NCBI GenBank assembly: GCA_973895155.1
Contig: OZ316899.1
Coordinates: 15,341,974-15,405,973, forward strand
DNA from: Marsupella aquatica
Lineage: Eukaryota > Plantae > Marchantiophyta
Length of the DNA stretch: 64,000 nt
Reading direction: 5' to 3'
Shown here: positions 22,201 to 58,474 of the stretch, piece by piece
Position numbering within the stretch: position 1 is the first letter of the stretch
Layout of the letters: each line of letters begins with the position of its first letter
Notes under the pieces: model-generated
What the model was told of the DNA's origin: nothing
Database searches by the model: none
The model's input: only the letters and a program-made list of their open reading frames with translations
Made by a program: the position numbers and the translations under genes

Positions 22201-22971
22201 ACACAGCCGTTTTCCGGCCTGACTGTCAGCTTAGTTAGGACCGTAGTCAGCAAATCTTCGGCGAGAGGACACCCCGTCCCTCGTCCCTTAGTATTTAGTG
22301 CACCCCTCGGTAGAGGCAAGGGGGGGGTTTTTAGTTGCAGAGTTGGACGTCCGCGGTATGTGCGGGGAGTCCCGACCTCTGGGAATGAAAGAGTACCAAG
22401 GGGAGGGGGTAGGACTAAGCTCGCTGGGGGAGTGCGGAGCCGGGCTCCGTTGTAGTGTGCACCCTCGGCCTTGAACCTGTTCATTCCGGGGCTGTCGGGT
22501 CAACTAAGTGTACGCATATGTTCCCTTTGTAGTAAAATCCTTTCCCATCATTTTCCTTCGTGTAAATCGAGATTGCATGTGCGCGTGTATGTGTGTGGGT
22601 TTCTTGTATATGGGTGGCAGCGCCAGGCCGAATGCACTACCCGAGACATGCATAGGGTGCAGCCTACGGGTAAGTGGTTGCGAGCACGGGTTGAGGACCT
22701 GTATCATCGAATCTGGATCGAAGGCGGACAGCACGAAGGCTTAGAAGCCCTTAAGCCGGGGTCGATCCTGCTATCGACTAAGGTACGTTCCGGCGGCAGA
22801 ACACAAACCATACCTAGGAGGTGTCCGTATTTAGCAGTATGCGCACTTAGCGCTAGTTTACGAGAATAAGGTGCATTACGTGCTTCCCTTCCTGCCCGAA
22901 CCCTCAGATTTACGAGGGATGTGCCCGTCTAAGCTGAAGTCTGAGTTAAGGCCGCAGCCGACGACGTGACA
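19171..22971 (+). repeat. 3' LTR of family B (3801 bp)
   Basis: Direct repeat of 9068-13069 with a 219-bp deletion. Confidence 0.95.
19636..22076 (+). pseudogene. LTR-encoded ORF of family B, 3' LTR copy
   Basis: Same ORF as 9534-12174 with a different set of lesions. Confidence 0.8.
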
Positions 22972-25900: not shown

Positions 25901-26512
25901 GCAAGTTTTTAGTGCACCAACAGGACTGGGATCAAGTAGTTAAAGAAGCTCTCGGTTAGTTATACTGTGACCCTTGTGTATATTCATGTTTCCTCATACC
26001 TAAGAGATGAATAGAGTTGGCCTCACGGCTTAGTTCGCAGATCTTGTATATGAGAAGTACTATTTGTATGGCAAGTGCATGGTATAACTCAGTCAGAAGG
26101 AGTCATTTTGCTATTTGTGTGTCGCATTAACCTGTTTGAAGATTGCCCACATCAACCAAGAAGGGAGTAAGCAAGGTAGTAAGAGTTGGATGTGTCGAGC
26201 TGAGAGAGGTCTTAGCGGCTTACCCAAGCCAGTTGGGGATCATTCCGGCGGTGGAATCCAAACATACCTAATGGAAAACCAAGAGAGGAGGACAAGGGAA
26301 GGCCTAGAATAGGCCGGCTACGTATCTCATGACCCGATGAAGGATCTGTCTAGTATATGTGAGTAAAATGTTAATAGTAATAGTAGTATAAGGAAGTTAG
26401 CAGCGTCCCATGCCGCTAAGCCGCGAAATTGGCCTCGCCAAGAGCGAAACCTGCGGGAATCGGCTTGTGCATAGGTGTTTCTTGGGTTTAGGGAGCCATG
26501 GGACGCACCACA
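22972..26512 (+). repeat. LTR of family D, 5' part missing
   Basis: 24481-26512 matches the solo LTR at about 55087-57144; ends GCACCACA. Confidence 0.85.
22973..25607 (+). pseudogene. LTR-encoded ORF of family D (same domain as B LTR ORF plus long coiled coil), decayed
   Basis: FGLPMG..VDTR..FPGPSTKNGFFQNTCTNPHIGEMINFLRVTMHCNLPRAEIGKAQV aligns with B FGLPEG..VESR..FPSEGAVDNGFVMKTCLIPEIAERLEFQRYALHMMEPRGEISAAQV. Confidence 0.75.
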
Positions 26513-26554
26513 CAATGCTCCCCTTGAACATGAGGTAAGTGTTCTCTGTGGTCT

Positions 26555-29500
26555 CTATTGTTCCTGCATCAACTTAGAGAAGCTTCGTAAGCCGATGGAA
26601 TGTGTATGGTCTTTATGGATAGCCGGTGGTAGTGATTTTGTAAACATATCTACGTGATTCAGCTGGCTCGCTATCCATTTAACGGTAATGCTGTCACCTT
26701 GCTGCTTGTGTGTGAAAAAGAATTTTGGAGCGATGTGCTTCGTCTTATCGCCCTTAATGAAACCTGCCTGTATTTGGTCCACACAAGGCCTGTTATCTTT
26801 GTAGATCGGTGTGGGCGATGTTAGTTTAGTTGTACCTGTGTGTTTGCCAATGTGGTTAAGCACATTCTTGAGCCAGATGCACTCCCTGCTTGCTTTGTAT
26901 AGCGCTATGATCTCCGAGTGGTTTGAGGATGTCGTTGTTAATGTTTGTTTGCTGCTTTTCCAGGAGATCGCCGTTGTTCCAATCATAAACACGTATCCCG
27001 TCTGCAATTTTGCATCCTGCGGATCTGATAGATAGCCCGCGTCCGCATAACCTGTTAATGTGTTGTCTGTATTTGCAGGGTAAAACAGTCCCATGTCAAT
27101 TGTGCCCTTAAGGTATCGTAAGATCCTTGTAATGCCATTCCAATGGCAAATGGTTGGCTGTGCGCTGTGATGTGCTAAGAGGTTAACTGCGAATGCGATG
27201 TCAGGACGGGTCTGACTGGCAAGGAACATGAGGACGCCTATGGCAGATAGGTATGGCTTGTCTGGACCAAGTAGTGGTTTGCTTTCATCTCTTTTCCGAA
27301 ACATGTCTTCATGTTTATCGAGTGATCTTATGTCCATCGGGGATTTGACTGCATGAGCCTTTTGCATATGAAATTGCGGTAATATGCGCTATGTATACGT
27401 GGTTTGATGAAGTAGTATGCCTCTTGGTAAATGTTTGAGCTGGAGGCCAAGGCAAAATGTAGTTTGCCCTAAATCATGCATTTTGAAGACTCGTTTGAGT
27501 AATTTGATGATTTCCTGCATTATTTGGCTGGTACCAAATAGGTTTAGGTCATCCACATAGATGGCAATTATAATGAATTCTTGGCCTTCTCTCTTAAGGA
27601 AGATGCATGGAGCAATATCTTGATTTTGGAAACCCATGGCGAGCATTTCAGCTTGGAATCGCTTGTACCAAGTTCGGCCACTCTGCTTCAGGCCATACAT
27701 GGACCTGAGCACTTGCATAGCATATCGTATTCTGGCTTGAAGAGCCTTAGTTTTAGGGTTTAGGGTTTAGGGTCTACCCTTGCTCATGTGGGGTTTCAAT
27801 TTTATACTCTGTGAGATACGTTGTAGTATCTCTTGATTTGAGTGGTCAAACATAGTGCCCTCTGGTTTGTGTGTTGTCGTGGGTAGTTTCTCCCCCTGAC
27901 AGTGTGCTTCCTCCCTGTTAATTAATTCTGGTGGAGCTTCCATATGGATTGTCGTGTCTAAGTGGCCGTATAAATATGCTGTTACAATATCTAACTGATG
28001 CTGTGATGCAGTGAGAAGGCTATCAAGTATTGGTAAGTAATTACATCCATAACGGGTGAGTAGGTGAGATTGTAGTCTCTGCCTGGTATTTGAGTAAAGC
28101 CCTTTGCTACTAGCCGTGCTTTATAGCATACTACCTCCTCCTGTGCATTTCTTTTTAATAAAGGTCCACTTGTATCCTGTCAAGTGGATGTCTGGCCTAG
28201 TGTGATCGAGCCAAATACTTGTCTGGAGATCAGGGAGTCGAGTTCCTGATTGATGGCTTTCTCCCACTCCGGCCAGTCGGATTGTCTCTGTGCTTCTTTC
28301 ACCGTCAGTGGGTCCGGTGTGTCTTCTTTTATTTGTTGTGCTATTGTATATGCAAATGTTTTGTCTGGGAAGGTACTCTTTCTATCCCATATATTGCCAA
28401 TTATATTATAATTGATGGCGATTTCTTCGTTTGTTTCGGTAACAGGTTGGTTCAGTATAATGTGGTCGTTGTTTATTGCTGCAGGAGTGGGTGTAGTTTG
28501 GGCTGAGGGCACTTGACACCTCTGCCGTGGTTGCTTGTCTGTTGCCCCGGGTGGTCTTCCCCGTTTGGCCCTTGGTGCCGTGTATTTGGCTGGTTGTTTT
28601 GTCATCTGTATACGTGATGGGTGTTTGCTGCGGGTATGTGCGATCTTGTCACTTTTGCTGCATCTGCGAATGAATCTGGTAACTGCTCCATCATTCTTGT
28701 AAGGTGGAGTAGTCTTTGTACTTTGCTGTTGGCTTGGCCTGTTCTCGGGTCATTCTAGAACTCAGATTGCGTCTGCCAATTGAGTTCTGTATTGTCGTCT
28801 TTGTCTTGTTGTGATCTATCTTCTAGGCTTGGGAAAGTGCTCGCGTAGAAGTGGCAGTCCATGAATCTGGCTTTAAACACGTTTGTCGTTGTTGGTTCCA
28901 GGTATCTGATGATGGAGGTGGAGTCTAGGCCCACATAGATGCCCATTTGTCTCTGTGGGCCTATTTTGGTTCTCTTTGGGCCCATAATCGGAACTAGGAC
29001 CTGACACCCAAATGTTCTCAGGTGGGAGACGTCGGGGATGTGTCCAAATGCTAAGTGGTGTGGAGAGGTAGAATTGAATGATGATGGTCGGTAACTGATG
29101 AGTGTAGTTGCGTGTAGTATGGCATGGCCCCATGCCGAAAGTGGTAGGTTGGTTTGCATAAGGAGTGGTCAAGCTATGGTTTGTAGCCTTTTGATGAGGG
29201 ATTCAGCGATCCCATTCTGAAAATGGACGTGGGCGACCGGATATTGTATCTCTATGCCGGCTGATTCGTAGAACTCTTCAAAGGTCTTGGCGGTAAATTC
29301 TCCAGCATTATCTACTTGAAGAGTTCTTATTGGAAAGTTGGGGAATTGAGCTTTGAGTCTCAGTATGTGCGCCAGGAGTCGGGGGAATACCATGTTTCTC
29401 GTGGATAATAGTGAGACTCTTGACCATTTAGATGATGCACAGATAATGGCCAAGAAGAAGCGGAATGGTCCGCTTGTGGGTTCAATTGGACCGCACACAT

Positions 29501-29583
29501 CCGCGTGGAGCCGGTCTAGGAATTTGGGTATTCTTGTTTCAGTGGTAGGTGGGGATGGACGTAGGATCAGTTTTCCTTTGGAG
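26555..29583 (-). pseudogene. Bianca pol: integrase, RT, RNase H
   Basis: DNAGEF, YGLKQSG, IYVDDL, GYADAGY, KHIAPKFF; several stops and frameshifts. Confidence 0.92.
27752..27772 (+). repeat. Interstitial telomeric repeat (TTTAGGG)3
   Basis: TTTAGGGTTTAGGGTTTAGGG. Confidence 0.85.
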
Positions 29584-30100
29584 CACTAGTACATTTTTGC
29601 TCATTTTCCGATGCTCCCGCTGAAACATGAAACAGGCGTCTGATGGCCGGAGTTACGCAAACTTTCGTTTACAAAAGTATCGGAACTTGCGATCCCCACA
29701 GCTTCGGAAACCCTTTGTCCGATTCCCAAAACAACGGACATCATTTGCGATACTCCTAATATAGGAACATATCCAATGTCTTGACTATCGGACCCCTCTT
29801 CTAAAAATTGTTACTAAGTTTACGATCCCTGAAGTATCGCATTCAATGTCCAATTTAGTGAAGAACGGAAATATTGCGATGAAAAATGTATCGCTGAGTG
29901 CTTCCGATAGGTTGGGTATCGCAAATGTTTTCCGAAGTAGTGTTTATCACAAATAATTCCGATGCTACACGTATTGGAAATGGAGTCCAAAAGGGTTTAA
30001 ATCGGATATATGTGGTTCGAGGTCAAGATTTGAACAAGGAGGTCTTCCGATGGGCTTCCGTTGTTTTAAGCATGGGAAATGGTATCGGGAATAAATGGAC
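29584..30100. repeat. Left CACTA TIR and subterminal TCCGAT/ATCGGA repeats
   Basis: Multiple TTCCGAT/ATCGGA copies in both orientations. Confidence 0.8.
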
Positions 30101-30279: not shown

Positions 30280-33200
30280 CTATTGTAATGAGGGGTCCAA
30301 ATCCTCTACTACAACTACACTTGGCTTGTCTTGAACAATGGATCGTGAGCGAGGGATGTAAGGCATAACAATGGACCACTCTGGGTCATTCGGATAACGA
30401 AGATAGAAAGATTGCTCCAAATGATGGGGAAATGCAAATGGATCTGAGGTTCTCCAATTGGAACTAATGACACTAGTTGCACTGGTCGTCAATCGTGTGA
30501 ACCCACATGCATCTTCCTCACAGGTCCAATTATGGCCAACAAGATTCATCCAAAACCATTTGCACTTGAACACCACCTCCTCCAAGGTTGTATGGGCATG
30601 ATAATTTACGATAAGAATCTCCTCTATCTTCCCATAGTGGGCCACAGTTGAACGTATTGGATTCCGGTCAGAAGTACTACTTTGTGACTCTTGGGTGAAC
30701 CACCCCATCACCCCACAATCTTGTGTTGTTGCTCTCTTCATATCAAGATGTTGGATTCGAAAATGCCTCCCCTTTGACCACATGGCTGTTCGAGTCGTGA
30801 CCGTGAGTAATGGACCATGAACAAGGGTGCGCATGTCATTGGTGACCTTCGGAAAGTGCAAAACACTCTCACCCTGACCCACCAAGGCATCAATCTCTGT
30901 CAACTTCTCCTTCATATATGGGAGAAACTTGGGGAAGAGGCGTGGCCAACGACTATTACTCTTCTCCTCCTCATAAAATGCAGTCCACTCCCCTGAAATC
31001 TCTGGTGAGTTATACAACATGAATGTGGTGAGTTGCAGACATTCAGCAGAGCCTAGTAGTTGTTCTCCCTTTGCTCCAGTGAGTCTATCCTCATAATCTG
31101 CCTCTCGTGCTGACTCATCTATCCAACCCCTTGGAGCATTTGGATCAAGTGTAGCCACAATGTTCGTACAATAGAACATACTCTCTGCTCCAAGGTGACG
31201 TTCGGCAAGGCTACCTTCCACCCTAGCACGGTTTGATACATATGATTTCATGACTCCCATGAATCGCTCTACCCAATACATCCAACGACAATGTACTGGG
31301 CCAGCAATGGCTACTTCATGCACTAGATGTACAAGAAAATGAACTTGACCATCAAAGAAGGAAGGAGGGAGTGCTCGCTCCAACTTGCACACAACCTCCA
31401 CTCCAAATACCTCCATGGCAGCAATCTCTCCCTCGTTGACCTCCTTTTGACAAACCCATCTCAACAATCTACCCAATGACCAAAGTGCATCCCGAAGATC
31501 CTCGCTGCCCAATCCAATAATAGCAACTGGAATAACATGCTGCAATAGACGATGATAATCGTGGGTCTTCAAGAAAGCTGGCCATTTTGGAGAGTCATCT
31601 CCACCAAATGCCTTGCGAAGATTGGCACCATACCCTGTAGGAAACCACATTGACCCTATCCGCTTGCAAAACTCTATTCGCTCACTCCTTGTGAAAACCC
31701 ATGGGGGATGGATAGTAAGGGGAGGGTCAGGGTCCATAGATGGCCAAAAACCATGAAGGCCATGCATCCCCATCCCCTCACAACTCTCTCTCCAATTGTT
31801 GTTTTTCTCTCCATATAGATGGCGGATCAATGACCTCCTAACATTCCCCTCAATATGCATAGGGTCCAATAGATGATTTATCGGCATGTGTTCCCAATAT
31901 GGAAGTTGTGCCAATGCAGACAAACGGGTCATGCCACATCTAGCCAAGGGTAATGGGTCATCTGGATCAGTCACCCTCTCCCATACCTCCTTCCAATATA
32001 TTGGGTCCTTCGGTAAAGGCTGAGGTCTTGTGTCTGGCTGGCCCTCATCCGTGTCATACAAAAATGGATCATACCTCCAGTCATGCCCCTCAGGAAGATA
32101 CTTTGTGTGACCAATGTAAACTATCTTCCGCAGGGTGGTAGACTTTGGGCGCGCCACTCCCTCCAAGTCTGGTCCACAAGTCGGGCAAGCACGATATCCA
32201 GAAGTTTGCAAGCCAGAAATATATCCAAACCCTTCACAAACAATGGTCACAAATTAAAACCCATTAAGTTTTGAAACCAAACCAAAGGGAACAAAATAAA
32301 CAGAACGATATATATATATGGGTAGCTGCACAAGCCATACTTAATTTATAAAGAGTTGGGTACCTGGAAGATCATGCATGGTCCACATAAGAATGGCTTT
32401 GAGCTGAAACTCACGGGGTAAGCCCCCTATATGCACTCGACCATCATAGCAATCCACTCCCCCCCAAAGTTTCTGTAGCTCCTCAATCAACGGTTGCAAG
32501 TATACATCAATCTTCTTCACTTGCTTAGGGCCAGGAATAATCATAGATAGGAGCAAATGACCCTTCTTCATGGCCATCCATGGTGGGATGTTGTAGCTAG
32601 TGAGGACTACTGGCCATACAGAGTATGGTTTGGCCTTGACGGCCAGTGCAAATGGGCTAATGCCGTTTGATGCCAAACCAAGGCGAACATGACGAGGGTC
32701 AGTCTTGAACTCACCCCAACGCTCTTCCACAAATCTGTTTGCAGGAGAGTCAACCATCATGCGCATGGTTGGATCCTGAGTAGTGTTTGAACGGTGTTGG
32801 GAGTGCCATACCATATACTTAGCCAACTCTGCGCATCGAAACTGGTGATGCAAACGAGGAATAAGGGGAAAGTACCTCATAACCTTTTGAGGTACTCTTC
32901 CTATCAACATATCCTCACGATATCTTGGCGCGTTGCACACAGGACATGTAAGAGCATTTGAGTGCTCCTTCCTGAACAAAACACAATCATTCACACAAGC
33001 ATGTATGACCTCATACTTGAGGCCTATGGACTTCAACACTTTCTTCGCCTCTTTCCATGATGCTGGCAAGTTGTTCCCCTCTGGTAACATACGATCATGC
33101 AATGTCCTGAAAATATCATCAAGAAGCAAGTTGCTTGCTCCATGTCTTTGCTGCAAGTTCAGTAATAACATGATTGCTGAGAGACAAGATAATCTAGACC

Positions 33201-35017
33201 CCTCAAAAAGACAAGTCCGTGCATGCTCTTGAGCCTCCTCCCACTGGTGCGAGTGTGGATTCCGTGAAGGAGTAGGCACGAGGAGGAGGTAAGTCAATGT
33301 CCTCCCAGTCACCTGGGTCATGATCACCCCGGGGATCACCCTCATCTGCATCCATGAATTGGTGCATCAACTCATCCATAGCCCGGTCCTCATCCACTCT
33401 TTCTTGGGTAGCATTAGGTAGTTCATGTGGAATGTCCATATCCTCAAAAGGTTGACCCCCTTGCCTACCATCCATGGCCTGAAGGGGATGTCGCACAGCT
33501 CGTGATAATACCTCAATATCTGGCTGAACAAATGCATTCTATCATACACAAAAGAAAACAATGAGAATGATATAAGTCCAGGTCTCTCAACCAACAATTG
33601 AGACATCCATATATGAATGAGTCAAAAGACTCCATAGCTCTTGAAACCACTTAGAGAATGACTCAAGTAATAGTTTTATAAAAGTGAACACATACACATG
33701 TTTGTATGTGCTATGAAGGACGACACCGTATGGCCATCTTAGGCACGTTCCAATCATAGTCACAAAAGAGTTCCTCACCAACCCTAATAGTCGTAATGGC
33801 TATAGTCATAACATGGTCATCCATATGCTTGACATAGTAAGGTGGTGGCGGTGCCCCAAAAATCTGAACCCACTCTACATTTGGTTGAAGTCCTCGTCCT
33901 CTCCCTTTGGTACTATTGATATACCCAGCGATGTTATCACATCGCACAGGATCACCATCAATCATCCTACAATGCCAAGGCCTCTTGAGGACCTCATCCG
34001 GATCGGAATCCATTTGCAATGCATACACTCCCCATGATGGTTGTTGCCGCAAAATAATGTTCCAATTCTTGGCAGTGTATATAGGGCCAATGTAAGGAAA
34101 TAAGTGCTCCCCATCATAACCTCTTCGCCATGGCTTTGGATGGACCACAATGTCCTCCAAAGCAAATAACCCAAATCCTACATCAACAAGGGAAGATGAC
34201 TGCACTATCCAATGACGGCTCCATATCTCTATAGGGGCATTAGTGGGTATGCCTTGAGGGATTTTGAATATCTCAGACGAGAAGTCCTTCACAAGAGGCA
34301 ACGCCTTTCCAGTGAGATATGACAATCCCAACCTACCCTCCACTACCACATAACCCTCACCTGGCTTCATCATAGGCGGACCTACCAAGTTTGGGTCTTG
34401 AGACTCACGAGTGCCCAATGGTTTGTAATGTCTCCTATGCCTATGGGAGCATGGGCGGGTGTGTAAAACCCTAGATGGAGGTACCTCCAGGTCACCTTGC
34501 TCAATGTCCTCCACCCTTGCTACAGGTACACTCCCGCCCTCACCACTGGGGCGCGGGGTAGGAGGAGGGGGTGTAGATGTTGATGCAAGCATCCGTCTTG
34601 CACTAGCCAAGAATGTGTCTAGCCATAGCTCTTTAGAGATCAATGGAGGAGGGGGCCTACGGGGCACCTATTCATTCAAAAAAAATCCAAAATTAATAAA
34701 TATATGATGATAGTGGCCATGATTTAAGTGGCAAATTATGTTTCCTTCAAAATGTGCGGGGTGAGAGTATGGGGTGCATACCTGGCGAGCTGAATGTCCT
34801 GGTAAATCAGGTTGGTGTTGCCCATAATTCTCAATATGCTCAATACACTCCCAAGCTTGACGAACCACCATTCCCTTACATCGCACACACCAACATGGAA
34901 TGGGGCGTAGAGGAGGAGGAGGTTGATGCGGCCTCGGAGGGGGGGGGGAGGAACGTCCCCCTCAGAAGATGACGAGTCCGAGTCAGAATCTGACTCGGAA
35001 CTCCCAGAATTTGACAT
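30280..35017 (-). pseudogene. CACTA TnpD-like transposase; predicted exons 35017-34782, 33523-32364, 32231-30280; frameshifts near 34945 and 33245
   Basis: IPCWCVRC..HI..YG (transposase-associated Zn-like), IHACVNDCVLF, YSVWPV, WTMHDLP|GFG..ACPTC, LLDPMHIE, KTHDYH, GPVHCRWMYWVER, VFKCKWF; GT-AG introns in phase. Confidence 0.9.
33711..34667 (-). CDS. SET-domain (lysine methyltransferase-like) exon inside the CACTA transposase gene
   Basis: GFGLFALEDI, FPYIGPIY, IDG..NIAGYINS, PNV, IRVGEELFCDY; open for 318 codons; preceded by a phase-0 AG acceptor. Confidence 0.8.
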   Translation of the reverse strand: MPRRPPPPLISKELWLDTFLASARRMLASTSTPPPPTPRPSGEGGSVPVARVEDIEQGDLEVPPSRVLHTRPCSHRHRRHYKPLGTRESQDPNLVGPPMMKPGEGYVVVEGRLGLSYLTGKALPLVKDFSSEIFKIPQGIPTNAPIEIWSRHWIVQSSSLVDVGFGLFALEDIVVHPKPWRRGYDGEHLFPYIGPIYTAKNWNIILRQQPSWGVYALQMDSDPDEVLKRPWHCRMIDGDPVRCDNIAGYINSTKGRGRGLQPNVEWVQIFGAPPPPYYVKHMDDHVMTIAITTIRVGEELFCDYDWNVPKMAIRCRPS

Positions 35018-35613
35018 CTGCCCATCAATGTGAAAATTAATCACATGTCAAAAATCGTTCCCACCCATATTAAGTACCCTAAATACAATATGTCAAGATT
35101 GGAACCTAGTTTACACTAAGCAAATAATTAAAAACAATGACTGTGCATCTTACCTAAATGATATCCGCGCTAAACAATGCCTACTAGGATCTTGGCCTTA
35201 GAATATATGCTAAGACAATATCCAAAATGTCTGCACAATTAAAGGAATACCATCAGAATTTATCTATACATATGTCCCCATAGAATCATATCCACTATAT
35301 ATTGTGGCCATCAATGAAAAAAGTTTAGCCAAATATATACTTAAAGTGCTCACCTCCAAATGATAAAGGGAGTACATCATACCTTTCGGATGCACGGCCT
35401 ATCGCGATGCATAATGCATTGCAAAAATGGACCTACAAAAATACAAACAAAGAGAACGACCCAACCCTCCGCAAAAAAATACTGCACAATACACGCACAT
35501 GAGGTTAACTTTGTTTGGCCCCCAAAATTAAATCCACATACAAGGTGGACAAATTTGTCAAAATTTTTAATGTGAGTGGATCAATGATCATACCATTCAA
35601 CCCCAAAAGTATG

Positions 35614-35639
35614 TTTAGGGTTTAGGGTTTAGGGTTTAG
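35614..35639 (+). repeat. Telomeric-type repeat (TTTAGGG)3+ in the CACTA divergent promoter region
   Basis: TTTAGGGTTTAGGGTTTAGGGTTTAG. Confidence 0.85.
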
Positions 35640-37157
35640 ACGGTAAGGGGGATGTTACCGCACATATAACCGGCTTTTATTCAAGAACCCCACCGTCCAA
35701 ACAAAATCCGACTACTCAACCAGGCCTACAATTACAATGCAAGTTTTCACATCAACTAAACTTACATTTCCTTACCACATCCCCAGCCCCCCCCCCCATT
35801 GACTAACTTATTATAAATCCGTCCTTAAAGGCATAAAAAATAATGGACAAGCTAAGTCCGATCATATTGGAAGAGGGGTCCGATACTTTAAGCATCACTA
35901 TTTCCGATCCCGTTTTCGATAGTTGAAGTATCAGATGTTCCGATTCTTAAAAAGTTGGATGGAGGGCACAATAGGGTTTGGTACTTTTCCCGACTAAAGT
36001 ACGAATGTCTTTGTATCGGGCTTGGTTTTGGATGCAACTTGGGAGGAGCTGCCGAGTGAACACAAAGCGGAGGAGCACGCATTGGAGGTCGAGGCTATGG
36101 AGGGGAATGGCACGGATGGGGGGGAGGAGACAAAGCAGCCAGGGTGGGTGGAGATGGAGCAGGGCCGTCGCAGCAGATCTCGGACATTATGGCAGAGATT
36201 TTCAAGAGGCAAGCAGGCCTGTCTGCTGAAGCTGCGGCCATAGCAGCTCAATTGACCCAGGGCCTGATTGACGAATCCAGGCAATCTGCCATAAGTGAAG
36301 CAGAGAAGGCTTTCATGGAGAGGCTAGAGAAAGGAAAGGAGAAAAAAAGAATGAGGAAGGAGGAGAGGAAAGGCAGGCCAGTGGAGGCCCTCTCACCACA
36401 AGAAAGAGAGAAGAGGCTTAGAAAGGAGGCTCGAGCTGCAGAGAGGGCAAGGATTGAGGAAGAGAGGCTATGAGCAGAGGAAAGGGCCAAACGGCCAAAA
36501 TTGTTCATTAAGAAGGGAGGAGCTCCGATGACAAAGAGCTACAATTTGTTCAGAAGTCAGCTAGGGCAGGTGTTGAGGGCAAATTTCAGCCCCTTAGACT
36601 ACTGGGGGAAGAAGAAAGAAGAGGAGAAATTTCAAGCAAGGGAGCAAGTGAAGGAGCGATTATGTAATGGCTGCTTTCTGGATGATCGATGGCTGAATAA
36701 GAAGATCTCACGTTCACTTGCAGATAGACGTAATAATGTGAGAGAAAAGATGAGGAAGTACCTGGCAGATTGTAAGGAGGAGGCAAAGGTGATGAGGAAT
36801 TGTATGGTGCGAGGAAACAGGAGATTTTGCTAGCGAGGCAACATTGTTAGCGAAGCATTCTGGCGGATACATTTATCTCACATTCCACGAAAACAATGCC
36901 CAAACAGTCTCAGTTTTCCACCTCTTACAATAATGAAAAGAATATGACAATGGAAAATCCTGCATGATTTTCATAAGTATTCCATACTTGAGCCACACAC
37001 GTTTTAATCATCTAAAAAGGATCACCAAAACTAGAAACTCCCATCAAAATATGGAACCTCTTTACATTGAAAGTGTGGATCGCCAACAACTTCAAGACAG
37101 AAAAACGGTAAGAGTCGACCTCGACCAGTACATCCAGTCCTACTTCCTCTTACTTGA

Positions 37158-40100
37158 TCAGTCATAAACTTCATCCTCTGATTCATCAGAGATGTCACTA
37201 CTACTAGGATCGCTACTGGTCTCCCTCTCCGTGGACTCGGCAGACTCATCTAAATACTGACGGACTGTCCCCGCCTCATTGTCGATAAACCTTGAACAAT
37301 CCAGATATCTTCGAGCACCTCTCATGGACCGAAGTCCTTTCGATTCCCAAGTCAAGATAACAGGATCTTCATCAACCTGCCTCGCCGATGTCTCAGCATA
37401 GCACGGAAGAGTAAAAGGCTTCTCAGGAGTAACCACAATGGACTCCTGGACTTCCCTCCGAAGACGAAATCTCTCCTCAGAAAACCAATCCACCCTCCTA
37501 TCACTGACGCAACCACCGACATCAGTTGACGAAGAGCAACAAAATAAAGAAAACAAAAGAAACCAAATAGGGAGTCCGACATCAGAAGAGGCCAAGTACT
37601 TTACTCCAGGTCGAATTTGTCTTTCTCGCTTGAAGGCCCAGCCTGTTCATCCCCTGGAATCGTGAACTCATCATCTGACCCAGCGTCTTGATTAACCTTG
37701 GCTGGTTGATCCCTAATCTGCTTTGCCTTGCTCGAATGCCTCGCCAGAACACTGTTTAAAGTTTTTTCTGCACAGCAATGGAGAATGTCCCTGTCTTCAA
37801 CACCGACAACAAAACTCCCGGAGAATTCTTCGGCAGAAAACGAGCTACCGTCACACACAGTCCAGTCAAGGACTATGTCTTTGGGTTTTGTGAGGAATTC
37901 CATCACGGCTTGCATGAACCCAATTGAAAGCCTTTTCGATCCAGCAACAGCCGCTTCTGGACAGGGGTCAGTCTTAGGGTAACAAACACTCAACATTGAC
38001 TTATGTCTTGCATCTTCCGAAGACGTCAATGGAACATACGCTGGGTCTTTAGGAATCTTTGCACTAAATTCCACCCGACAAAAAACATCCAGGGTGAGAG
38101 TGCACACCTGCATAAAAACCAAAATACATCAGAAACAATGCTAACTTTGTTAGCGAGCTTGCTAGCATTAACTTAGTCGGAAAATAGAAAATTAACACCT
38201 AAACAAGATATGTTTGGTAGCTGAAAATTATAATTTTGTTAGCGACATCGCTAGCATTAAAACTCTCAAGAAATTTAAGGGATAACTACCTCAATATCCA
38301 TATCTGCCCTCCATAAAGGGGTGGACAACAAAACGGTATATTGCTGCACATGTTTGAATTTGTTTTTTTGCTCAACTGCCGTAAATATTTGCCTCATGTG
38401 ATTGAAGTCTGAGCTGTGCAAGACAACAACATATCCGTCGTCTGAAAGCATTGGTCTCATCACTCCAAAAAAATAATATGGGAGTTTCTCGCTCCAAACA
38501 TTCCAAGACGGAACCTGTTTGTCTGTAACGCTTGTTCTATGCCCAGTTGGAAGAGAAATGAATCCCAAATGTGCTCCAATCCCAGCATAAGGCTTTCCAT
38601 TAATTACGACATGGTTCGGGCACTCTACGCTCTTCGACATCCCAGTAATCCATCGATCTCCATCTCCCATCCAAGATGGCCTCACTTTACTTACGCTAAT
38701 TGAGTTTGCAGTATCGGTCAAATTGCTACGAGCCAGGAAATGTCGCTGCCCATCCATCTTCAAACCACACATCCGAGCAACACCTTGAGCAACTGAAACT
38801 TCCTCATCGTCCGAATCTGAAAGAATCTGGATGTTCCGCTTCCGTTTCAAACGTTTTATACTTCCTAAATCCACTGCGCTCTTTGTTGTGACTTCGGCAT
38901 CTGGGGACTGAGGTTCCTCACCATCATCTGCTCCACTCTTCAAACTCTCAGAAGCCGCTCCCTTCCTCCTCTCTGTGAAGCAGAAGACATTAGTGTCTGT
39001 ATATTTGACACACATCCGGACTTAAAAATAAAAAGTAACATACAATTAACAGACTTACTTGGCTTTCCGGAAATCTGGGACCCATCTTTGGATGTGTCCT
39101 TCAATGCTCCTTTTCTTGGCTTCCGTGCTTGACTCCTATCCACTATGGTAGCTACACCAAGACAAGCTTTTTCCATCGCCTCGCAACCACCAACTTCAGC
39201 ATCAGTGGGTGCCAATTTGGACTCGGAGATGTAAGATTCCGGAAGGAATCCTTGATTGATCATGTGAAGAGCTGCTTTCTCTGCAGTGTCAAATGTCACA
39301 GACCATTTGTCCGAGTCCAAATACCATGGACAATGAAGAACCTCCCACTCGCTCAATCTCCTCGGAGCTTCACTTCCCTCGCAAGGAAACATACAATATT
39401 CCCCAAACTTATCACTTGTAGGGTCCTCTTTAACCCCGACTATCCATGGGGAGAAACAGGTTGGGTAGGACCACCAGTAAAATTTGTCTGCTACTTCTTT
39501 GTCTACAAAAAATCGATACGTGTATCTCTTCGCTCTCCTCCGAAACAATGTAATGTCTACCTTCTCTCCTGTCTTGGGTGGCCAAATCTGCTTGAAAAAA
39601 CAAGTTTTCACACGAGTTTGGAAATTCTCAAAATCCTCCTCAATGTCAAGGATTAGCGAAGCTTTCGTCTTCTCTGAAGACGTAAGGATCCTTGACTCAG
39701 GGACAGTAGGCATTACCTCAGAAACAATTTCAGACATGAGGGAAGACAAAATTGACTCGGCTTGCTCCCACACTGCCCAATGATGAAGCCAAAGCTTAGT
39801 CTCACCATCTGAGAATTGACCTGGATGAAAGAATTTTTTCCGAAGCTCAGGATGACACTGTGCCTCTAGGAGTGTACATCGGAGCTCTGGGGATAAAGAG
39901 GTCACACCAATGAACAATCGAGCTTGATCAAGACCACAAGAAACATTTCCCCTGCCTTTGTCATCTGTTCTCTGGGCCTCCTTTCTCTCGTTCTCGCAGT
40001 AGTTATGCATTTCGACACATTTCTTGAAAAAGTCTCCAAACTCAGGATTTAGTAATGGACCGATCTTTGGAACTTTCACATTCCAATCAGCAAGTTGTTC

Positions 40101-41217
40101 TTTCATCATGTCACGCATTGCTAAGTCCTGTGCAGCCTTGGAAAGGGGCTCGCCTTGAGCCTCCTTAAGAGCAAATTTCTTCTTAAGGTCCTCGGTCTGC
40201 GATGCAATGTTAGCAGCGGATAGAATATAAGTGCAGGCATCCAGCGTCATGTTCTTCGAATACCATGCGGCCTTCCGCACATTGGCCATCTTTTGCTGGA
40301 AAAGTTTGTAATTCTCAGCGTCGATGATATCTTTGTAAACGGATAAGTCATTGTTCAGAATCTTCTGGACGCGTTCAGCCTCCAAAACCCAGGAATTCTC
40401 TACATGACATTGAGTTAACCTGCCACAACATGCCTCATGTTAGCGAGATCGCTAGCTGAAAGTGACCTGGTAAAAATGAAATTTCAGAACTATCTTATCA
40501 TGAGAAGTCCCACCTGTTCAATGCGTGCATAGCCGACTCGATCTGAACGAAAGAGTTCTTTCCACCCTTAAAGATCTTGCAGACCACTCGAGGATGGTAC
40601 TTAATATCATCCGGATGTTCCTCCGCCAGTTGGCTCCATGAATACAATCGGTGGTTTCCATCGAAAACACAAAACATTTTGTCCTTGAGGATCTGGAAAG
40701 AAACATGAGAATCACATTCGCGCTCAAACTCCTCGTTTTGCAACACCCAAATATCATCCCAAGTTTCGCGGATGGCATCTGTACAGATCTGGATTTCTCC
40801 ATCCTCGTTTGTCATCTGAACGTAAAATCGAGGCGCATCCTTGATGTAACCCTGCGTTTTGAACTCGGACTTCAATGTGTCTATCGCAGTGGAATCCTTC
40901 TGCAGAGACCGGACAATCTACATGTTTCTCATCCGGCACAGAGGAATTCGGGGGGGAGCCAATGCAAATCCGAACTCATTCACTCCAAACGAGTGAAGAT
41001 GACGGTTTATGACAACCGTGTAAGGTTCCAAAGCGCTCGGATCAAACACAGGAGCAACTACGTCTACCGCTGTCACCATCTTGGGCCGCCTTGGAGTCTT
41101 CAATCCCGCTACAAGCACTTTCTTGTTCGCTGTGGACCTAGTTTCTCTCCTTGTCGACTCCCTAGACTGAAACGATCCTCTCAAAGAAATACTCTCTGGA
41201 GACAACGATGACTCCAT
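37158..41217 (-). pseudogene. ParB/Srx-like N-terminal domain plus N4/N6 DNA-methyltransferase-fold protein, 1198 codons; exons 41217-40514, 40419-39059, 38972-38290, 38107-37605, 37503-37158; one internal TAG at 40918-40920
   Basis: Four GT-AG introns all preserve phase; IPLCRMRNM*IVRSL..LKSEFKTQGY..VFDGNHRL; HLGFISLPTG..MLSDDGYVVV..MEFLTKPKDIVLDWTVCDGSSFSA..VVGVED. Confidence 0.75.
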
Positions 41218-44200
41218 GAAATAAAACCCTTTGGAGAAGAGTGCTCGAGCCCGGAGACTGCAGCGGCTGCACGCGTCAAAAACGTCCACAGAGCACCTCC
41301 TTTCGGAGAATTAGGACAGCCGTACAAACTGCTACGAACTCCCTCCAAAGCCTTATAGAGTTACGATAGTGAATACTGACAACGATCGACAGTACGATGT
41401 AAGGAATAACAGAAATCTCCTGGCAGGGACCACTAGTTGTACTTTTTGGAAAACATGAAGAACAACCTTCACGACCGATAATCTTATCCAGACAAAATAC
41501 TCCAGGTGTCCCGTGTAATTTGTACCGTTGACATTATGGTACCCGTTGACTATTCCCAACGGAATCCTAACGGTAAACTTCCTCAAAAATCAGTTTGACT
41601 TTTTGGCTAGCGAGATCGCTGGCATAAACTCAATGACACAGGTATCCTTAAAAGAGTTGAAATCAACGGTTTTCTTGCCATAAAACTATCAAAACCAAGC
41701 TAGCGAGATCACTAGCATGGGAGACGTCCCTATACGTTGAGTAAAAGACAAAATAACGGTAAAATCAACGGGAACCGACTGACAATCTGTTCGGATTGTT
41801 GTTTCCGTTGGGAAAAACCCAGTTTTGGTCCTGCAAATAGGATTCGTATGGGAGATTCAAAACATAGTGGTTGTATTTTTGTATGCTAAGAAGAGATGAT
41901 GTCGATGAATTCCAAGGTGGTTTTGGAGCGTAGAATGACGGGAGATGTGGTGGTACTCCCAAGTGCCCCTGACTCATCGGAGGTTAGGGTGACAGAGTCA
42001 TTCCTTGCAACTCATTTTGGAATTCCAAAAGATGACCTTGTCATGAAGTTGTTTGAGTTGTATTCTCAAAATGGGCCACGGAGTCACGAGTTGAGAGAGG
42101 ACAGTAGTACTTCCGAGAAGGTCTGGACGCTGAAGGTTGGATCTTGTGTCAAGGTTCTGTCCAGTAAAGATGGTTTTCCTGATGTCATTTTGGAACCCAT
42201 GGAATTAGATCCCGTTCATCAAACTCCTGTGATTGATCTTGGGACGCCTCCCAAAGACAGAGCTCCCAAGGTCATTGAAATATCTCCAGAGAGTATAAGG
42301 CAAGACACATCTTGTGGTTCGATGAAGTCACGAGATGGTTCCGAACCCGAAGGGTTAGCGACAAATTTGATTGAAAGGACTGGGGATAGCATGACCACAG
42401 TGTATCGGATGAGTGCCTATGACGCTTTTCTCAATATCAGTGGAGCGAGTGAACTTGCACAATTTAGAAGAGGGAATCAATGGAATGAATGTCAGGTTTC
42501 GACTCTGCCATCGACATACAATGGTAACGTTGTTTTTGAACTTCCTCCAGTCGAGTGGGGCGGGAGGGGAGGAGGTCTCCAAGATATGGATCGAGAGAAG
42601 GACGGCTATCCTTGGACGAGACTAGTGACTACATCTGCAAATTTGAAGCCAAGGTTTCATTGGGCTGTGTCGAAAGTTCGTTGCGCTAGAATTCTTGAAT
42701 GCCATAATTTGGGTTGCCGGAAGTTGAAACATACTGAGTGAAAAATGACTGCGCTTTCAGAGGGAAAGGGTTGCTGACTGACATCTTTCGTCTTGGAGAG
42801 CAAGTGAGTGAGGGAGGACTTTCTGTGGCTTCTGTGAAGAGAGGCCTCTCTGTATTCGAGAATGCCCGGCAAAACTGTTGTATGTGTACCCTAAGCAAGG
42901 TTTGGAGAGTCACATTTCAATGCATATGTCCAGATTGGCTGTGCATATGGGATTCCACGATCACCCTGTTTGGAAGGGAAAATCTCGTTCTGCGAGAAAA
43001 ACAGCGGAAGATGTGGTTTTAGGGGTCCATCGGTTGAATCCAGTCTCAACTCCCGCACGTCTGAGAAACCAGTCAATTGGGAACCTTGTCTCGCTATTGC
43101 ATCCAGAATCATCGGCTCAGTTGTCGAGAGAAGAACAACAAGAAATTTGGAGTTTGATCGGAGTAGTTTCTACCGCTCCAAAGTTCCAAGCTATTCTTCG
43201 GAGTGTGAAGATGGATAATCCTAAAAAAGGAGAACTTGACTCACTTCGTGAAATGCAATCACGTAACAATTTCCCTTTCGTGCAGAGGTACCTATTTCCC
43301 GATCAAGGAAACAGAAATGATCGAGCGCATGTATTCAAAATGAGTACAAATGGTCCTGGATCGGGTGTGGAAATTTTGAGGAGCATGGAGGCTGGAGGAG
43401 CATTGGAAGGTTCGTGGGTCAGTTTTGACGTGATGCATCGTATCACTAGTGGATGGTTGACCTTCAGCGCACACATGTATGACCATAATTACCGCGCTCT
43501 GTGTACAATTTTCACTTGGGAGTTGAGAGCCGAAGACACAGAGTCGCTTGAAACTACGTGGAGGTTAATGGTAGATGTCGCATCCAAGAATGGAGTGCAT
43601 AATCCCATTATTGGAGGATTCATAGCAGACAATGCGGAGGCTGGCTGGATTTTTGTGAGAAGGGTATTTTTTGGAGGTGTCAGAAATCCTCTGAAAGAGC
43701 ATAGTGATGCTTTCCATCTCTCTCAATCCCTCAGAAGACACACTTTGGAGGGGATCAAGGAGGGGTGTCATGCGGAGCACTATAAGATGTGGGAGAAGTT
43801 AAGAATTGCTCCAACATACGTCGAAGCATATCGTATCGCCGAAGACATTCAAAAATGGTGGAAAGAGGGGAATTGTCACCCTTCCAAGCTTAAATCACTA
43901 CAAGGGTGGATTTCATGGTGGGTTGTGCGGTGGAGACAATGGGGTAACTTTATTCGTGTGGTGAGTAACGGTGAATTCTTTCTGATGAGTTTAAGCTAGC
44001 GAGATCGCTAGCAATAAAATTTCTTTTCGTAAATGTATTTTGGTCACCGATTGAAACATTAGACTGTCTCAAAATAGACATATCGCTAGTGAATACAAGT
44101 GTTAACTCTGCTCATTTTTCAGACGCAAACTGCGAAGGAGTCTGCTCTGATGCCAAACTGTGCGGGAGCTGAATCTGCTCACGCATCAATGCGTTCCTGC

Positions 44201-46026
44201 CAGCCGAAGAAGAAAATTGGTTTGATTGAAGCCTATGAAGTTGACCAGAATCGAGCAGCTGGACAGATTGCAGCGTTCACTGCATACTTGGAAGGGTGTC
44301 ACCGTGGGAATGGTCCTACAATATTTGAGTTGGCCTTCAGAAATGCAGATACAATGGGGTCTATGGATGCCTATGAGAAGGCATCCAATCTACTATTTGA
44401 ATCATCTGGAAAATATGAGTTCTATAGAACTGTGCCTTTACATGGAGATCTTAGAACAACGTCAGGGAAACGGAAGGGTAGTGCTTCTGCTTCTATTCAT
44501 GAAAACGATTCTCATAGACATGATAAGATATTGCGCACAGTGGCGTCGCGGTCTAGTTTGAAAAGAAGAAATCTTTACACAGAATTTGGTAACTTCAGCG
44601 GTGCTTCTGATATTGGTGGACCTTCAGACTTTCCTGGCGATGGAGACAACCCCACTTGCCATGGACCTTCTCTTCCTCGTGAAGTTATAAATATATTAGA
44701 TGATGGTGAAGAACTACGTTGGAGAAATACCACAGCCTCAAAATAATCGGGATGAAATTCAGGATGCACCCCGAAGGATCCCTTTTGTTGAAGAGGTTGA
44801 TGTGACATATGGGACCTGGCACTTGAGGCGGAGTGGAAAAGGGAGTGGACCTGTTTGCAATGGACGAGTGGACCGAAGTGTGTTTGGAAGAGATGAGTGC
44901 AGGAATCTCATCAAAGAAACTGGAATGAAGGCATTCCGGGCTGGAGTGGTTGGTGTTGCGATTCACGGATTGAGGTTGTCATCTCCACATCGTCAGCTTC
45001 TATACTTCTGTCCGAATAATAGGTGCCATAAAACAGGTGGCAAAAGGACTCTTGCCCAGCTTCCGGAACCACCTGAGGCATTGCAAGTCCAGCGTGGGAC
45101 CAGGCTGACCCCAACAGAGATTGACTTTCTTCTTCGAAATGGGATTGAAATCAGAGGATTATCATACTCTGATCGAGCACCGATTGGGTCGTTCTCCTCT
45201 CCAAATCGTGTTGACCTCCGAATTGATGTGAACTCCTTCCCAGAAAGAGTTGACATTGGTATTCCAAACCGTAGATTCAAGACCCGGAATGGGAAAGGCG
45301 TTCGTCAACGTTTCCAGAACACCCCGGAGCTTCTCACGCATTTGATCTGCGACTGACAAACATATGAGAGTCATTGGAAGTGAGAAGATATGCCTCGAAA
45401 ATGGGTGGGGATGGCAATATCTTATCGTCACTCACGAGACAGATTCTAAAATTGCACACAAGTACTGGGTCCAAGTGTGTTGCTTTCCTTCTTGCTCATT
45501 TGATGACTTCTACAAGAGACACACGAGAGGAAGACCCTATATGTCTTGTAAACACCTCCTCTGGGTGTACTTAAACAAGTTCTCACTGAATCTAGACAGA
45601 GACGATCTTGTGAAGCAGCCAATTCTGACTGTTGCTGAAGTAAGGAGTTTGATTCCGTTGCAGTGTAGTTGACTTAATCTCTATTATCCGTTGAGGTGAA
45701 CGTTTCAGCGTCCCTAATTTTGTCGCCTTTTTGGTTTTCAGAACAGAGGAAAGTCCTCCACCTCACTAATTATATTGTGTATGCAATGTTAGCGAGGGTC
45801 TAGTACTATTCTATACGTATCGGCAATAGTGTTTATTTTTCTAGCGATGTCTCTGGCATTAAACCCGTAAAGTAAAGTTTTAGGTTTCCCGTAAACGGTT
45901 TCTTTTTGACCAAGTTCTACATAACGTAGAGTTCAATAACTCATGTATTTTAATTGTTTTTGGGATATACATTCGAGAAAACAAACCATTTTAGTCACGC
46001 ATAGTTTTACTAGCGATGTCGCTAGC
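38149..46026. repeat. Dispersed 18-bp palindrome GYTAGCGA-NN-TCGCTAGC, eight near-full copies
   Basis: 38149-38166, 38238-38255, 40439-40456, 41606-41623, 41699-41716, 43995-44012, 45840-45857, 46009-46026; partial sites near 36829, 36846, 42354, 44083, 45788. Confidence 0.9.
41896..45672 (+). pseudogene. Mutator-like transposase with GCM-like Zn DNA-binding domain and C-terminal SWIM finger; intron 43961-44122; stop at 42739 and frameshifts near 42820, 44715, 45340
   Basis: DGYPW..C..LECHNLGC..CGFC..C..C..HMGFHDHP; FDVMHR, FIADNA, DAFHL, GAESAH; YWVQV..PSCS.DDF..CKHLLWV. Confidence 0.75.
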
Positions 46027-47026
46027 AAAACTAGTACTGTAAGTCCAAACATTGCAGTCGGCAGTCTTCTCAAGAAGTTATTTCAAAATGAACAAAGATG
46101 TTCTCCCTTACAACTGTGTTGGACATTGAGTGTCGAAGAACTTTTTCGGATCCCAGATCTACGAAATAGACACAGTCGGGCTTAGGTTGTTGTTGCTTTT
46201 TGCGATAGTTAGGCCACAATAATAAGGGAGTATTTTATATAGGTAGAGTGGGTAGTGATACCCATGAGTTGAAAGGGATGTGGGGGTGTTAGGGAATTTT
46301 TCTAAGTAATGTGTGGGGCTAGGTAGGGATTATTATTCATTAAGTAATGTGGGGGATTTGGTAGGGATTAACTTTTAAAATAATGTATTTCAAGTAATGG
46401 GGGGTTTCAATTTTATTCTCATTTGTCGGGGAGGGGGGTTAATTATTATCTTGAGTATGGTGCAGGAGCAAGAGCATGGACGCCCAATCTTGCCGCCCGA
46501 GAGAGAGTTGGCTAAGAAATTTGGAACGCGGGCTCTGAAGCTTCACATGCAGGACGAGTTGGGGTCGGTAAGTATATGCACAATTGAAAACCATATTTCT
46601 AACCTTTGAATGCAACATGGTTATAATCACTCCCTTGTAGGTCATTTGCAACACTAACACTTGGGTTGATGGTTGCTTACATGTATGTAGGAGTCAAATG
46701 AGGAGTCTGAGGGTTTGGACTCAGCCGAGGAGGGTTTGGGGGCCTCAGATTCAGAGTCTGAGGCTGAGGAGGGGAGTGTGGCACCCACCCCTGTTCGCTT
46801 GATTGGCGGCGCATCCCGAGGGACTCAAGGTAGTCATTCCAGACGGAGGACTGGTGGTGATGTAGGTGGCTGTAGAGCAGCAGGAGGTAGTGGGGGTGCT
46901 ACAACTGCTGGAGGTGGTGTTGGGACAGGTGGTAGTGGGCGCCGGGGAGGTTTTGATTGATCTGCAGGTGCTGGTGGGCAGGGTAGTACTGGGGCCCATA
47001 GTGGTTCTCATAGGCCCGGGTCTGGT

Positions 47027-49383: not shown

Positions 49384-50129
49384 CTGGTGGGGGGGGTTGG
49401 TAGTGGGCCCCATGGTGGTTCTCACCGCCATTCAGGGGTTGTTGGCGGAATGGTTCTCGCCGTTCAGGGGCTAGTGGTGGAGGGGCAAGTGGGGGTGGGA
49501 GCACTGCTGTGGTCATTCAGGGGCCAACAGGGTGAGTGGGACTGGAGTTGGTGGCATTGGTGATGGGACTCCATCTCATCAGTCAGGGGCTAGTGGAGGT
49601 GCAGGGTCTCACCACTCTACAGCCCAAGGGGGTAGTGGAAGTGTATCATTTCATACTTGCTCCGATGCTGGGGGTGTTGCAGTGCCTTCTCATGACTTAG
49701 AAGGTGATGTTGGTGACGTTGGTACCCCGATAGCTCCAAGCACCACAGCTGCAACTGGATCTCATGCTGTCATTGATAGGGTCCTAGGGTTAGTGCCAGA
49801 TGCCACTCCCCGACCAGAGAGGTATCGCCCTCGTGCCAAGAAGAGGAAGGGACGACATGCACCAACATATGGATAGGCCAGGTAGCTTAGCATAGGACCA
49901 TTTGTAGGTAGGCCGCGATGCCATGCAGGTTGAGATGGATTATACACTTGTACATGTAAAGGTTGTACTTTCCATGCTAGAGGAAGCCATCCTCTTTTGT
50001 ATATATAATGGCAGGGGTTTTCCCCCTTTTGAGTCTCACTACCATTCTTGCTACCCATGCTCACTTCCATGCATCCCAACATTGTAACCCCCACACCCCC
50101 AAAATTAATAATCAGAAATTTTACCCCAT

Positions 50130-54517: not shown

Positions 54518-54740
54518 ATGAAACAATCACAAAAAAATGTCTTTTTTCAAAACTTCTCATAAAACTCAAAACTCAACACCACCGCGTAGCCCACGAAGCT
54601 AGGAGTCCAATAGTGAAAGCCAAAATATAAATCAAAATTTGACAGAAAAGTTATTCAAATTTTGGTCGGGGTGGGTAAAATCTTGGGAAACTCCCCCGTT
54701 TTGACCACCTCGGAGAATAACCAAAATAGCCAGTACAACC

Positions 54741-58472: not shown

Positions 58473-58474
58473 CT

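Follow-up and report, generated by a model that had tools for sequence, protein, structure and literature searches.

A conserved SET-domain exon inside the transposase gene of a decayed CACTA element from the liverwort Marsupella aquatica

Transposons that carry SET domains are known from several hosts. In red algae, the Plavaka accessory gene PAG2 places a SET domain in the EnSpm/CACTA superfamily, and chromatin modulation has been proposed for it, with no enzyme test reported in the available part of that preprint, which also mentions SET genes in Helitrons (bioRxiv 10.1101/2025.02.11.637652). Kojima and Jurka recorded SET genes in elements of the HarbingerS and oomycete MuDR kinds (Repbase Reports 2014, as cited in PMC12730594), again with no enzyme test in the accessible text. 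Maize Spm and Arabidopsis Spm3 produce TnpA and TnpD by alternative splicing, and in Spm3 the TnpA protein lowers CG methylation at cognate copies (bioRxiv 10.64898/2026.08.24.746577). As far as the accessible text of two preprints goes, the plant anti-silencers VANC and TnpA are DNA-binding proteins, and how silencing is removed is largely open (bioRxiv 10.64898/2026.08.24.746577; 10.1101/2025.02.11.637652). Here we describe a SET-domain exon lying within the transposase gene of a CACTA element in Marsupella aquatica. The element is contained in a stretch of 64,000 nucleotides (assembly GCA_973895155.1, contig OZ316899.1, positions 15,341,974 to 15,405,973), called the window below, and all coordinates are window positions. 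We tentatively read it, with slightly less than even confidence, as a decayed copy of a likely liverwort CACTA lineage in which a conserved SET exon sits in the first coding intron, shares exon 1 with the transposase, and encodes a chromatin lysine methyltransferase that would keep the element active.

The transposase/SET unit lies on the minus strand, and its exon order, with the SET frame nested in an intron, is real. Coding exon 1 (34782-35017) holds a Ser/acidic stretch, a Pro run and a CxCxxC..H..YG motif. It is separated by a 114-nt GT..AG intron (34668-34781, GC content 0.33) from the SET exon (33711-34667, 318 codons plus stop), and the acceptor TAG of that intron also serves as an in-frame stop bounding the SET frame on its upstream side. 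The SET exon encodes a conserved N-terminal segment, a low-complexity linker, an Arg-rich basic patch just before the folded domain (34422-34472, placed by R/K counts in homologues), a family-specific pre-SET part and the SET core, with the Pfam SET match at frame residues 164-304 (33756-34178). An AT-rich spacer of 187 nt follows (33524-33710, GC 0.33); it likely contains the 3' end of the SET transcript and of the long intron, and it ends in the transposase acceptor, where 22-25 nt are kept in diverged copies. Transposase exon 2 (32364-33523, Transposase_21) and a last exon (30280-32231, the C-terminal part of Transposase_21, then DUF4218 and DUF4216) complete the coding part. The introns and spacer have a GC content of 0.32-0.33 versus 0.47-0.53 in the exons. 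An initial annotation, made from the letters alone, had given a CAG/GT donor after 34782, acceptors ending at 34668 and 33524, and an uninterrupted SET frame with its own stop at 33711; the sites are present in the sequence, and the frame (34667-33711) is open for 318 codons to that stop.

Upstream, a likely non-coding 5' exon (35154-35230, minus strand) was placed from the sequence and the alignment of diverged copies. The acceptor of the intron that follows it (35153-35018) abuts the ATG at 35017, and alignment to the diverged copies runs as far as 35027 and picks up again at about 35146-35151. Among those copies the candidate non-coding exon is better conserved than the flanking introns.

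The host gene belongs to a complete CACTA (EnSpm) element of 21,076 bp, including two nested insertions (29584-50659, no strand assigned). Its 12-bp terminal inverted repeats (TIRs; 29584-29595 and 50648-50659) start with CACTA and are flanked by the target-site duplication (TSD) GAG (29581-29583 and 50660-50662); short CACTA-type TIRs with a 3-bp TSD are the marks of the CACTA/EnSpm superfamily. The frames downstream of the SET exon match Transposase_21, DUF4218 and DUF4216 in Pfam, which is the Tnp2/TnpD type of transposase. The TIRs, the TSD and these domains bear out the initial assignment of the host gene as a CACTA transposase gene. A subterminal motif has 10 and 15 matches in the roughly 700 bp at either element end versus 1.2 per 700 bp window-wide, although this enrichment is not an independent test since the motif was picked by eye from the same ends.

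Pfam supplied the profile match on which the SET assignment depended (SET, E=3.1e-6, 28 bits versus a cut-off of 22.4). An AlphaFold2 model built from 55 sequences with a 218-aa query had a predicted local distance difference test score of 90.6 and a predicted template modeling score of 0.86. When this model was compared with solved structures using Foldseek and VIA-align, the top ranks were all SET proteins, including Set1 (Z 12.1, root-mean-square deviation 2.6, 124 aligned), SET8 (Z 11.6) and LegAS4 (Z 11.1, 30% identity). Active-site residues were counted in the 55-homologue alignment (median pairwise identity 36%) at positions of the 218-aa query. G66, Y97 and N163 are invariant (55/55), position 92 is Tyr or Phe in all 55 (Tyr in 41), and Y115, N151 and Y204 are kept in 52/55, 49/55 and 45 of the 48 filled rows. 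Of the motifs noted at the outset in the window frame, GxG (given there as GxGLFA), YxG and GEELxxDY are present. The accompanying claim that NHS is replaced by INS was right about the loss of the His, whose position is Ser in 54/55 homologues and His in 0/55, but wrong in register: the motif GYINS[ST] is equivalent to RFINHS, and its Asn is retained. Among the features of SET lysine methyltransferases (KMTs), then, the SET fold, GxG, YxG, the NH Asn and the ELxxxY catalytic Tyr are found here, and the His of NHS is not. The conserved active-site residues make methyltransferase activity plausible.

Legionella LegAS4 gave the best profile match among solved structures (E 7e-5; runner-up E 5e-3) and carries Phe at the NHS His position in the HMMER alignment. 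According to the available part of a preprint, LegAS4 methylates H3K14, its dead allele mutates six active-site residues, and LegAS4/RomA needs a basic motif for nucleosome binding (bioRxiv 10.64898/2026.05.29.728679). The dead-allele residues Y135, Y159, N181 and Y220 align with Y92, Y115, N151 and Y204 of our query (HMMER, with the offset counted by hand). Since the active LegAS4 is also His-less, loss of this His is no evidence of a dead enzyme, and the residue is not needed in every SET enzyme. A basic patch before the domain (at least 5 R/K in 12 residues) was found in 21/35 homologues, versus 3/35 and 0/35 in two windows within the core and 3/21 further upstream; the other 20 of the 55 rows were too short upstream to score. 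This Arg-rich patch is a possible nuclear-localization signal or contact to nucleosomal DNA.

The SET frame belongs to a sizeable family. A word-index search gave 10 relatives, the best being a Calypogeia fissa model with 58% identity across 99% of the frame, and an exhaustive search gave 86 clusters at E<=0.001, with identity down to about 25%. The same layout occurs in a metagenome locus (L001) and in Riccia gene models, which disposes of the concern, raised with the initial annotation, that the exon might be a one-off. Pfam scanning of 58 family members (E<=0.01) found SET in 38 and Transposase_21 in 2, and pre-SET, AWS, SRA, PHD or any other domain in none of the 58. The flanking domains specific to classes of plant KMTs (pre-SET, AWS, CXC, SRA, PHD) were also not found in the window protein (Pfam, E<=1), which does not fit the canonical plant histone KMT classes (SUVH/SUVR, ASHH, ATX, E(z), ATXR5/6). 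Of 30 proteins looked up, 12 were Riccia sorocarpa models and 2 were Calypogeia fissa models, and all named members are liverworts.

The metagenome scan yielded two loci from 284 candidates, of which the second (L002) has a different 5' context and lies on a remote branch of the SET tree. A weak search for SET relatives 878-2505 residues long found 0 among 7981 candidates, and pattern scans, which are insensitive to distant relatives, found 0 of 101 candidate stretches in IMG/VR and 0 of 29 candidates in GTDB genomes. Remote relatives with 24-36% identity (P0068/P0094, P0085, P0070-P0073, P0078, P0083, L002:283-696) share the His-less GYINS motif and differ in their N-termini; one of them, Calypogeia P0068, has two Cys/His-rich repeats. 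The same type of SET domain may ride on other mobile elements.

Exon 1 is the transposase's own N-terminus. When a profile of 8 exon-1 segments was run on 231 proteins, it matched, at E<0.01 (best 6.6e-8), 18 of 119 newly retrieved transposases. The matches fall in the first 110 residues, at a CPCxxC..H..G motif, and PF13963 is found in 15 of the 18. In two proteins of the sister group from Adiantum (P0115, P0122), the motif and the transposase occur in one sequence with no SET between them, and the N-terminal CxxC/His motif occurs nowhere else in the window transposase gene. Exon 1 thus supplies the N-terminal transposase-associated motif of the Tnp2/TnpD type, and the domain common to both products, to which the initial annotation gave a targeting role, is this CxxC/His motif, a putative targeting domain. 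With its N-terminus in exon 1, the transposase depends on a long splice that skips SET, and the most natural view of the SET exon is as a segment inserted in the 5' region of a transposase gene.

The evidence that exon 1 also joins the SET exon comes from relatives of the window copy. In L001, an independent locus with 45% identity, exon 1 is intact over 78 codons, its GT donor is in phase 0, and a 111-nt intron leads to a TAG directly before the SET frame; the locus ends 225 nt past the SET stop, short of any transposase. Diverged copies in public DNA runs align through the donor and then again near each acceptor, not across the intron interiors. Ahead of the first Met of the SET frame, 25 residues are conserved (13-18/26 identical in 4/4 close homologues); no internal Met occurs in P0006 and P0008 ahead of residues 80 and 91, which requires translation to begin further upstream. 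The position of the first Met itself differs, being residue 26 in the window and residue 6 in L001. A single open reading frame on a 2141-nt Logan contig (P0019) contains the exon-1 motif and SET without an intron-sized gap, and predicted gene models from Calypogeia and Riccia make the exon-1/SET join. Conservation of phase and acceptor in L001, together with the homology of the window's exon 1, therefore favors the original proposal that exon 1 is common to both products, as a prediction for the family and not as a property of the window's own exon 1, which is out of frame. We consider the near-acceptor splice probable.

Trees of the two domains are consistent with a shared history. In a quick tree of 55 transposases (from 122 usable rows, being the best matches plus seven hand-picked), the five SET-linked sequences (the window, P0049, P0074, P0118, and P0113, the last linked through its adjacent locus tag) fall in a single clade with a Shimodaira-Hasegawa-like approximate likelihood ratio of 99. 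P0049, P0113 and P0118 group together in this tree, and their SET partners, a Riccia trio, group likewise in the SET tree. The best transposase match, R1sor_015800, has the next locus tag to an exon-1/SET model, R1sor_015799. This congruence is modest evidence of co-descent, because a single species supplies four of the five linked transposases and known linkage was used to assign the labels. The SET tree comprises the 77 of 103 rows that had enough length, and the 18 whose CACTA context is known are not gathered in one exclusive clade (8 changes); with context known for these 18, the tree speaks neither for nor against a single origin. Riccia and Calypogeia belong to different liverwort classes, which means that the arrangement is old or has moved between hosts. 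The structural part of an ESM Atlas search with the homologue P0001 returned streptophyte SET clusters and the feature-based part a mixture of haptophyte and bacterial ones, from which no origin could be read.

A number of observations weigh against the reading we propose. Exon 1 itself had no direct PF13963 match in Pfam (0 of 2 segments), yet it has the profile homology described above, so we take it as a diverged version. Set1, EZH2, SET8, SET7/9, NSD2 and LegAS4 are tied within 1 Z unit despite their different targets, so the fold names no substrate. The sixth LegAS4 active-site residue, Y231, has no aligned counterpart, and the SET core lacks post-SET cysteines. P0019 could be an intron-less genomic copy instead of a transcript. 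In the window, the SET sequence departs from the family at conserved positions, with a codon missing before GxG, Ser for Gly and Val for Ala. Most directly, the window copy is dead: with frameshifts in exon 1 and in the transposase, and with these altered SET positions, neither product can be made from it. The biology must consequently be read from the family.

The damage to exon 1 was missed at first, when it was described as a single open exon in phase 0. The distance from the ATG at 35017 to the donor, 236 nt, is not divisible by 3, and the frame that reads the acidic stretch is not the one that reads the CxCxxC motif. The shift lies at or near a run of C at 34939-34948. In four public DNA runs, all four contigs that bridge this run with at least 31 letters per side are shorter than the window there, by 5, 11, 5 and 5 nt (among 32 of 203 pieces listed); these are diverged copies in which exon 1 would be in frame if they contain no other indel. 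To the unfavorable side must be added a fifth contig, a close copy with only 17 letters on one side, in which the run is 3 nt longer and the frame still shifted, and also the length variants of +3, -3, -2 and -1 among the matches listed (12 of 23 rows), of which +3, -3 and -1 keep the shifted frame. The varied lengths show the run to be unstable, and many close copies may be broken. Transposase exon 2 has a 2-nt deletion near 33277 that is absent from most of the depth in 4/4 DNA runs. The catalytic Asp of the transposase LASDG motif is Asn here, versus Asp in P0049. With two frameshifts, the Asn in LASDG and two nested insertions, the window copy is not autonomous.

For intact members of the family, we propose one transcription unit with two 3' choices. 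Use of the far acceptor (33524 in the window) would, as the homology of exon 1 strongly suggests, give a transposase with the N-terminal CxxC/His motif. Use of the near acceptor (34668) would probably give a protein of about 400 residues comprising the acidic stretch, the zinc-type motif, the linker, the basic patch and SET, ending at its own stop. Such a protein would quite likely methylate lysine in a reaction dependent on S-adenosylmethionine, its basic patch anchoring it to nucleosomal DNA. Granting all of this, the chances are about even that a histone tail, at the element or close to it, would be the target and that silencing would be counteracted, comparable to the role of TnpA and VANC. 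Keeping the element's chromatin open is suggested, weakly, as the likeliest purpose by analogy with TnpA and VANC and by the silencing of bryophyte transposons through histone marks, many of them carrying H3K27me3 or H3K9 marks according to the available text of one preprint (bioRxiv 10.1101/2022.10.24.513474). Almost as probable is a target other than histones, or a mark by which the element limits itself.

The last point leads to an alternative that we regard as somewhat unlikely as a whole, namely that the exon-1/SET protein is an enzyme or a methyl-lysine binder acting on a partner other than a histone (the transposase, the protein of the element's second gene or a host factor in silencing), or that it writes a repressive, self-limiting mark. 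Many SET enzymes have non-histone targets, the fold here specifies no substrate, and an N-terminal motif present in both products could equally mediate binding to the transposase. Set against these points are the basic patch of 21/35 homologues, which parallels the nucleosome-binding motif of LegAS4/RomA, and the anti-silencing function of the plant DNA-transposon accessory proteins tested so far, as given in the accessible part of the source (bioRxiv 10.64898/2026.08.24.746577). It is unlikely that the SET frame is instead a nested gene with its own transcript from an internal promoter or start, leaving exon 1 to the transposase only. The Met codons at residue 26 in the window and residue 6 in L001 could serve such a gene; however, the residues before them are conserved while the Met position is not, a phase-0 acceptor is conserved exactly at the start of the SET frame in both the window and L001, and P0019 has exon 1 and SET in a single open reading frame.

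We think it improbable that the main product is a SET-transposase fusion resembling SETMAR, made from a donor near the end of the SET exon. Four Riccia models (P0049, P0074, P0096, P0118) do connect SET, whole or in part, to the transposase exon, but they cut SET at varying points, often before the catalytic Tyr, in the way ab initio predictors skip stops. The stop after GEELxxxY is kept in the window, in L001 and in most homologues, and the last 190 nt of the SET frame contain no strong in-phase donor, the lone donor-like site being in phase 1. CACTA elements often carry fragments of host genes, and the window copy is decayed, so capture of a piece of a host SET gene that now decays neutrally also deserves mention. 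It is very improbable given the 86 clusters reaching down to about 25% identity with invariant motifs, the lack of pre-SET, AWS, SRA and PHD domains in the scanned members, the same gene position in Riccia, Calypogeia-like and metagenome copies, and the single clade of SET-linked transposases. Our preferred reading, of an element-encoded methyltransferase spliced to the transposase's first exon, can be extended to a proposal that we are inclined to doubt: that an old bryophyte CACTA clade made its first coding intron a switch between the transposase and a minimal, His-less histone KMT sharing its zinc motif, unrelated to the host KMT classes and nearest to SET domains of the bacterial effector type, which would mark the element's own chromatin against silencing.

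The element has a second, divergent gene on the plus strand, split into pieces by two nested insertions (36060-49876). Its piece at 36060-36810 encodes a coiled coil and a helical region, and the gene continues at 46455 and beyond. No Pfam profile matched this gene, which may, by resemblance only, be a TnpA-like accessory gene. The stretch separating the two divergent genes, likely a promoter region, contains four telomere-type (AAACCCT) repeats (35613-35641), and a further run is found at 57575-57604.

One nested insertion is a Mutator-like element of 9.6 kb (36811-46454) with a 9-bp TSD (36802-36810 and 46455-46463); it interrupts the second gene, whose flanking frames fit together. The transposase-like frames of this insertion (41890-45672, plus strand) had no Pfam match, and their DDE/SWIM reading was made by eye. 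Its other gene (37604-41310, minus strand) includes a weak ParB-like part (40501-40917; phrog_1033 E 0.015, DGQHR E 0.04) and a weak N6-adenine-methylase-like part (37604-38128; PRK13699 E 0.022, PDB 5hek E 0.37), both below cut-off. About a dozen copies of a palindrome are found in its non-coding stretches (36825-46033). These features recall the cassette of ParB, methylase and inverted repeats described, in the available part of the preprint, for red-algal Plavaka and Mutator elements (bioRxiv 10.1101/2025.02.11.637652), with matches here that remain below cut-off. The other insertion in the second gene is a likely solo long terminal repeat (LTR; 47027-49383) with TG..CA ends, an imperfect 19-bp terminal inverted repeat and a 5-bp TSD. 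The CACTA element itself sits in a decayed Copia-like retrotransposon (26327-29585 and 50660 onward), judged by eye: its integrase region stops at the left TSD, and similar coding sequence resumes past the right TSD. The rest of the window (1-26000 and 53000-64000), also read by eye, holds several Gypsy-like gag-pol frames and long LTR-like repeats, e.g., near 9500-12700 and 19600-22600.

A small SET candidate that folds well in modeling, in a land-plant lineage, would make the question of whether a transposon can write its own histone marks directly testable, and Marchantia offers genetics. Splice-site choice would be a possible dial between transposition and chromatin control. If the proposed intron switch to a histone KMT, which we are inclined to doubt, proves true, no earlier land-plant transposon would have been shown to make a histone-writing enzyme of its own.

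How far the arrangement departs from known systems can now be judged. The initial annotation named SET-bearing transposons among Harbinger elements and missed the SET already reported from the EnSpm/CACTA superfamily of red algae. As far as the available text describes PAG2, the likeness is a SET domain carried by an element of this superfamily with a proposed chromatin role. PAG2, in contrast, is a separate gene in a distinct transposase lineage, with SET fused to an N6-adenine methylase, whereas the window SET is a stand-alone exon in a plant-type CACTA transposase gene. No methylase domain was found in the window SET protein or the scanned family, and the transposases closest to that of the window are of plant CACTA type. 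HarbingerS and oomycete MuDR elements are likewise DNA transposons with a gene resembling SET histone methyltransferases. They belong to other superfamilies and hosts, and the accessible account describes these as accessory genes, unlike an exon that has the transposase N-terminus in common.

Beyond transposons with SET genes, the RomA/LegAS4 structures (PDB 5CZY, 8SR6, 8SWI) share with the window family a minimal SET core, a His-less NHS, the active-site tyrosines and Asn, and a basic patch ahead of the domain. Identity is only 23-30%, the ankyrin repeats are absent from the window family, and LegAS4 is at most a candidate donor or nearest relative, from which the substrate cannot be transferred. 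SETMAR/Metnase is a domesticated host fusion of SET with a mariner transposase, and its SET domain, which we take to be 3bo5, was row 33 of the structural comparison. It resembles the window in having SET and transposase coding in one transcription unit, but it is a host fusion protein, whereas here the two would be putative alternative products of a mobile element. Spm, as far as its published account is available to us, offers a precedent in expression, with one CACTA gene yielding a transposase and a regulator by alternative splicing, which at this locus is predicted from conserved splice signals and phase alone. Spm TnpA is a DNA-binding protein derived from the transposase, while the alternative product here would contain a foreign enzyme domain encoded upstream of the transposase body, and the separate divergent gene is the possible TnpA-like one. 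We found no publication describing a SET exon within the transposase gene of a plant CACTA, in a literature search that barely covers subscription papers and Repbase Reports and in which most hits were judged from title and abstract. SET-bearing transposons are known, and the plant CACTA form that shares an exon with its transposase is apparently a new variant of them, real and conserved, with a putative splice and a putative enzyme.

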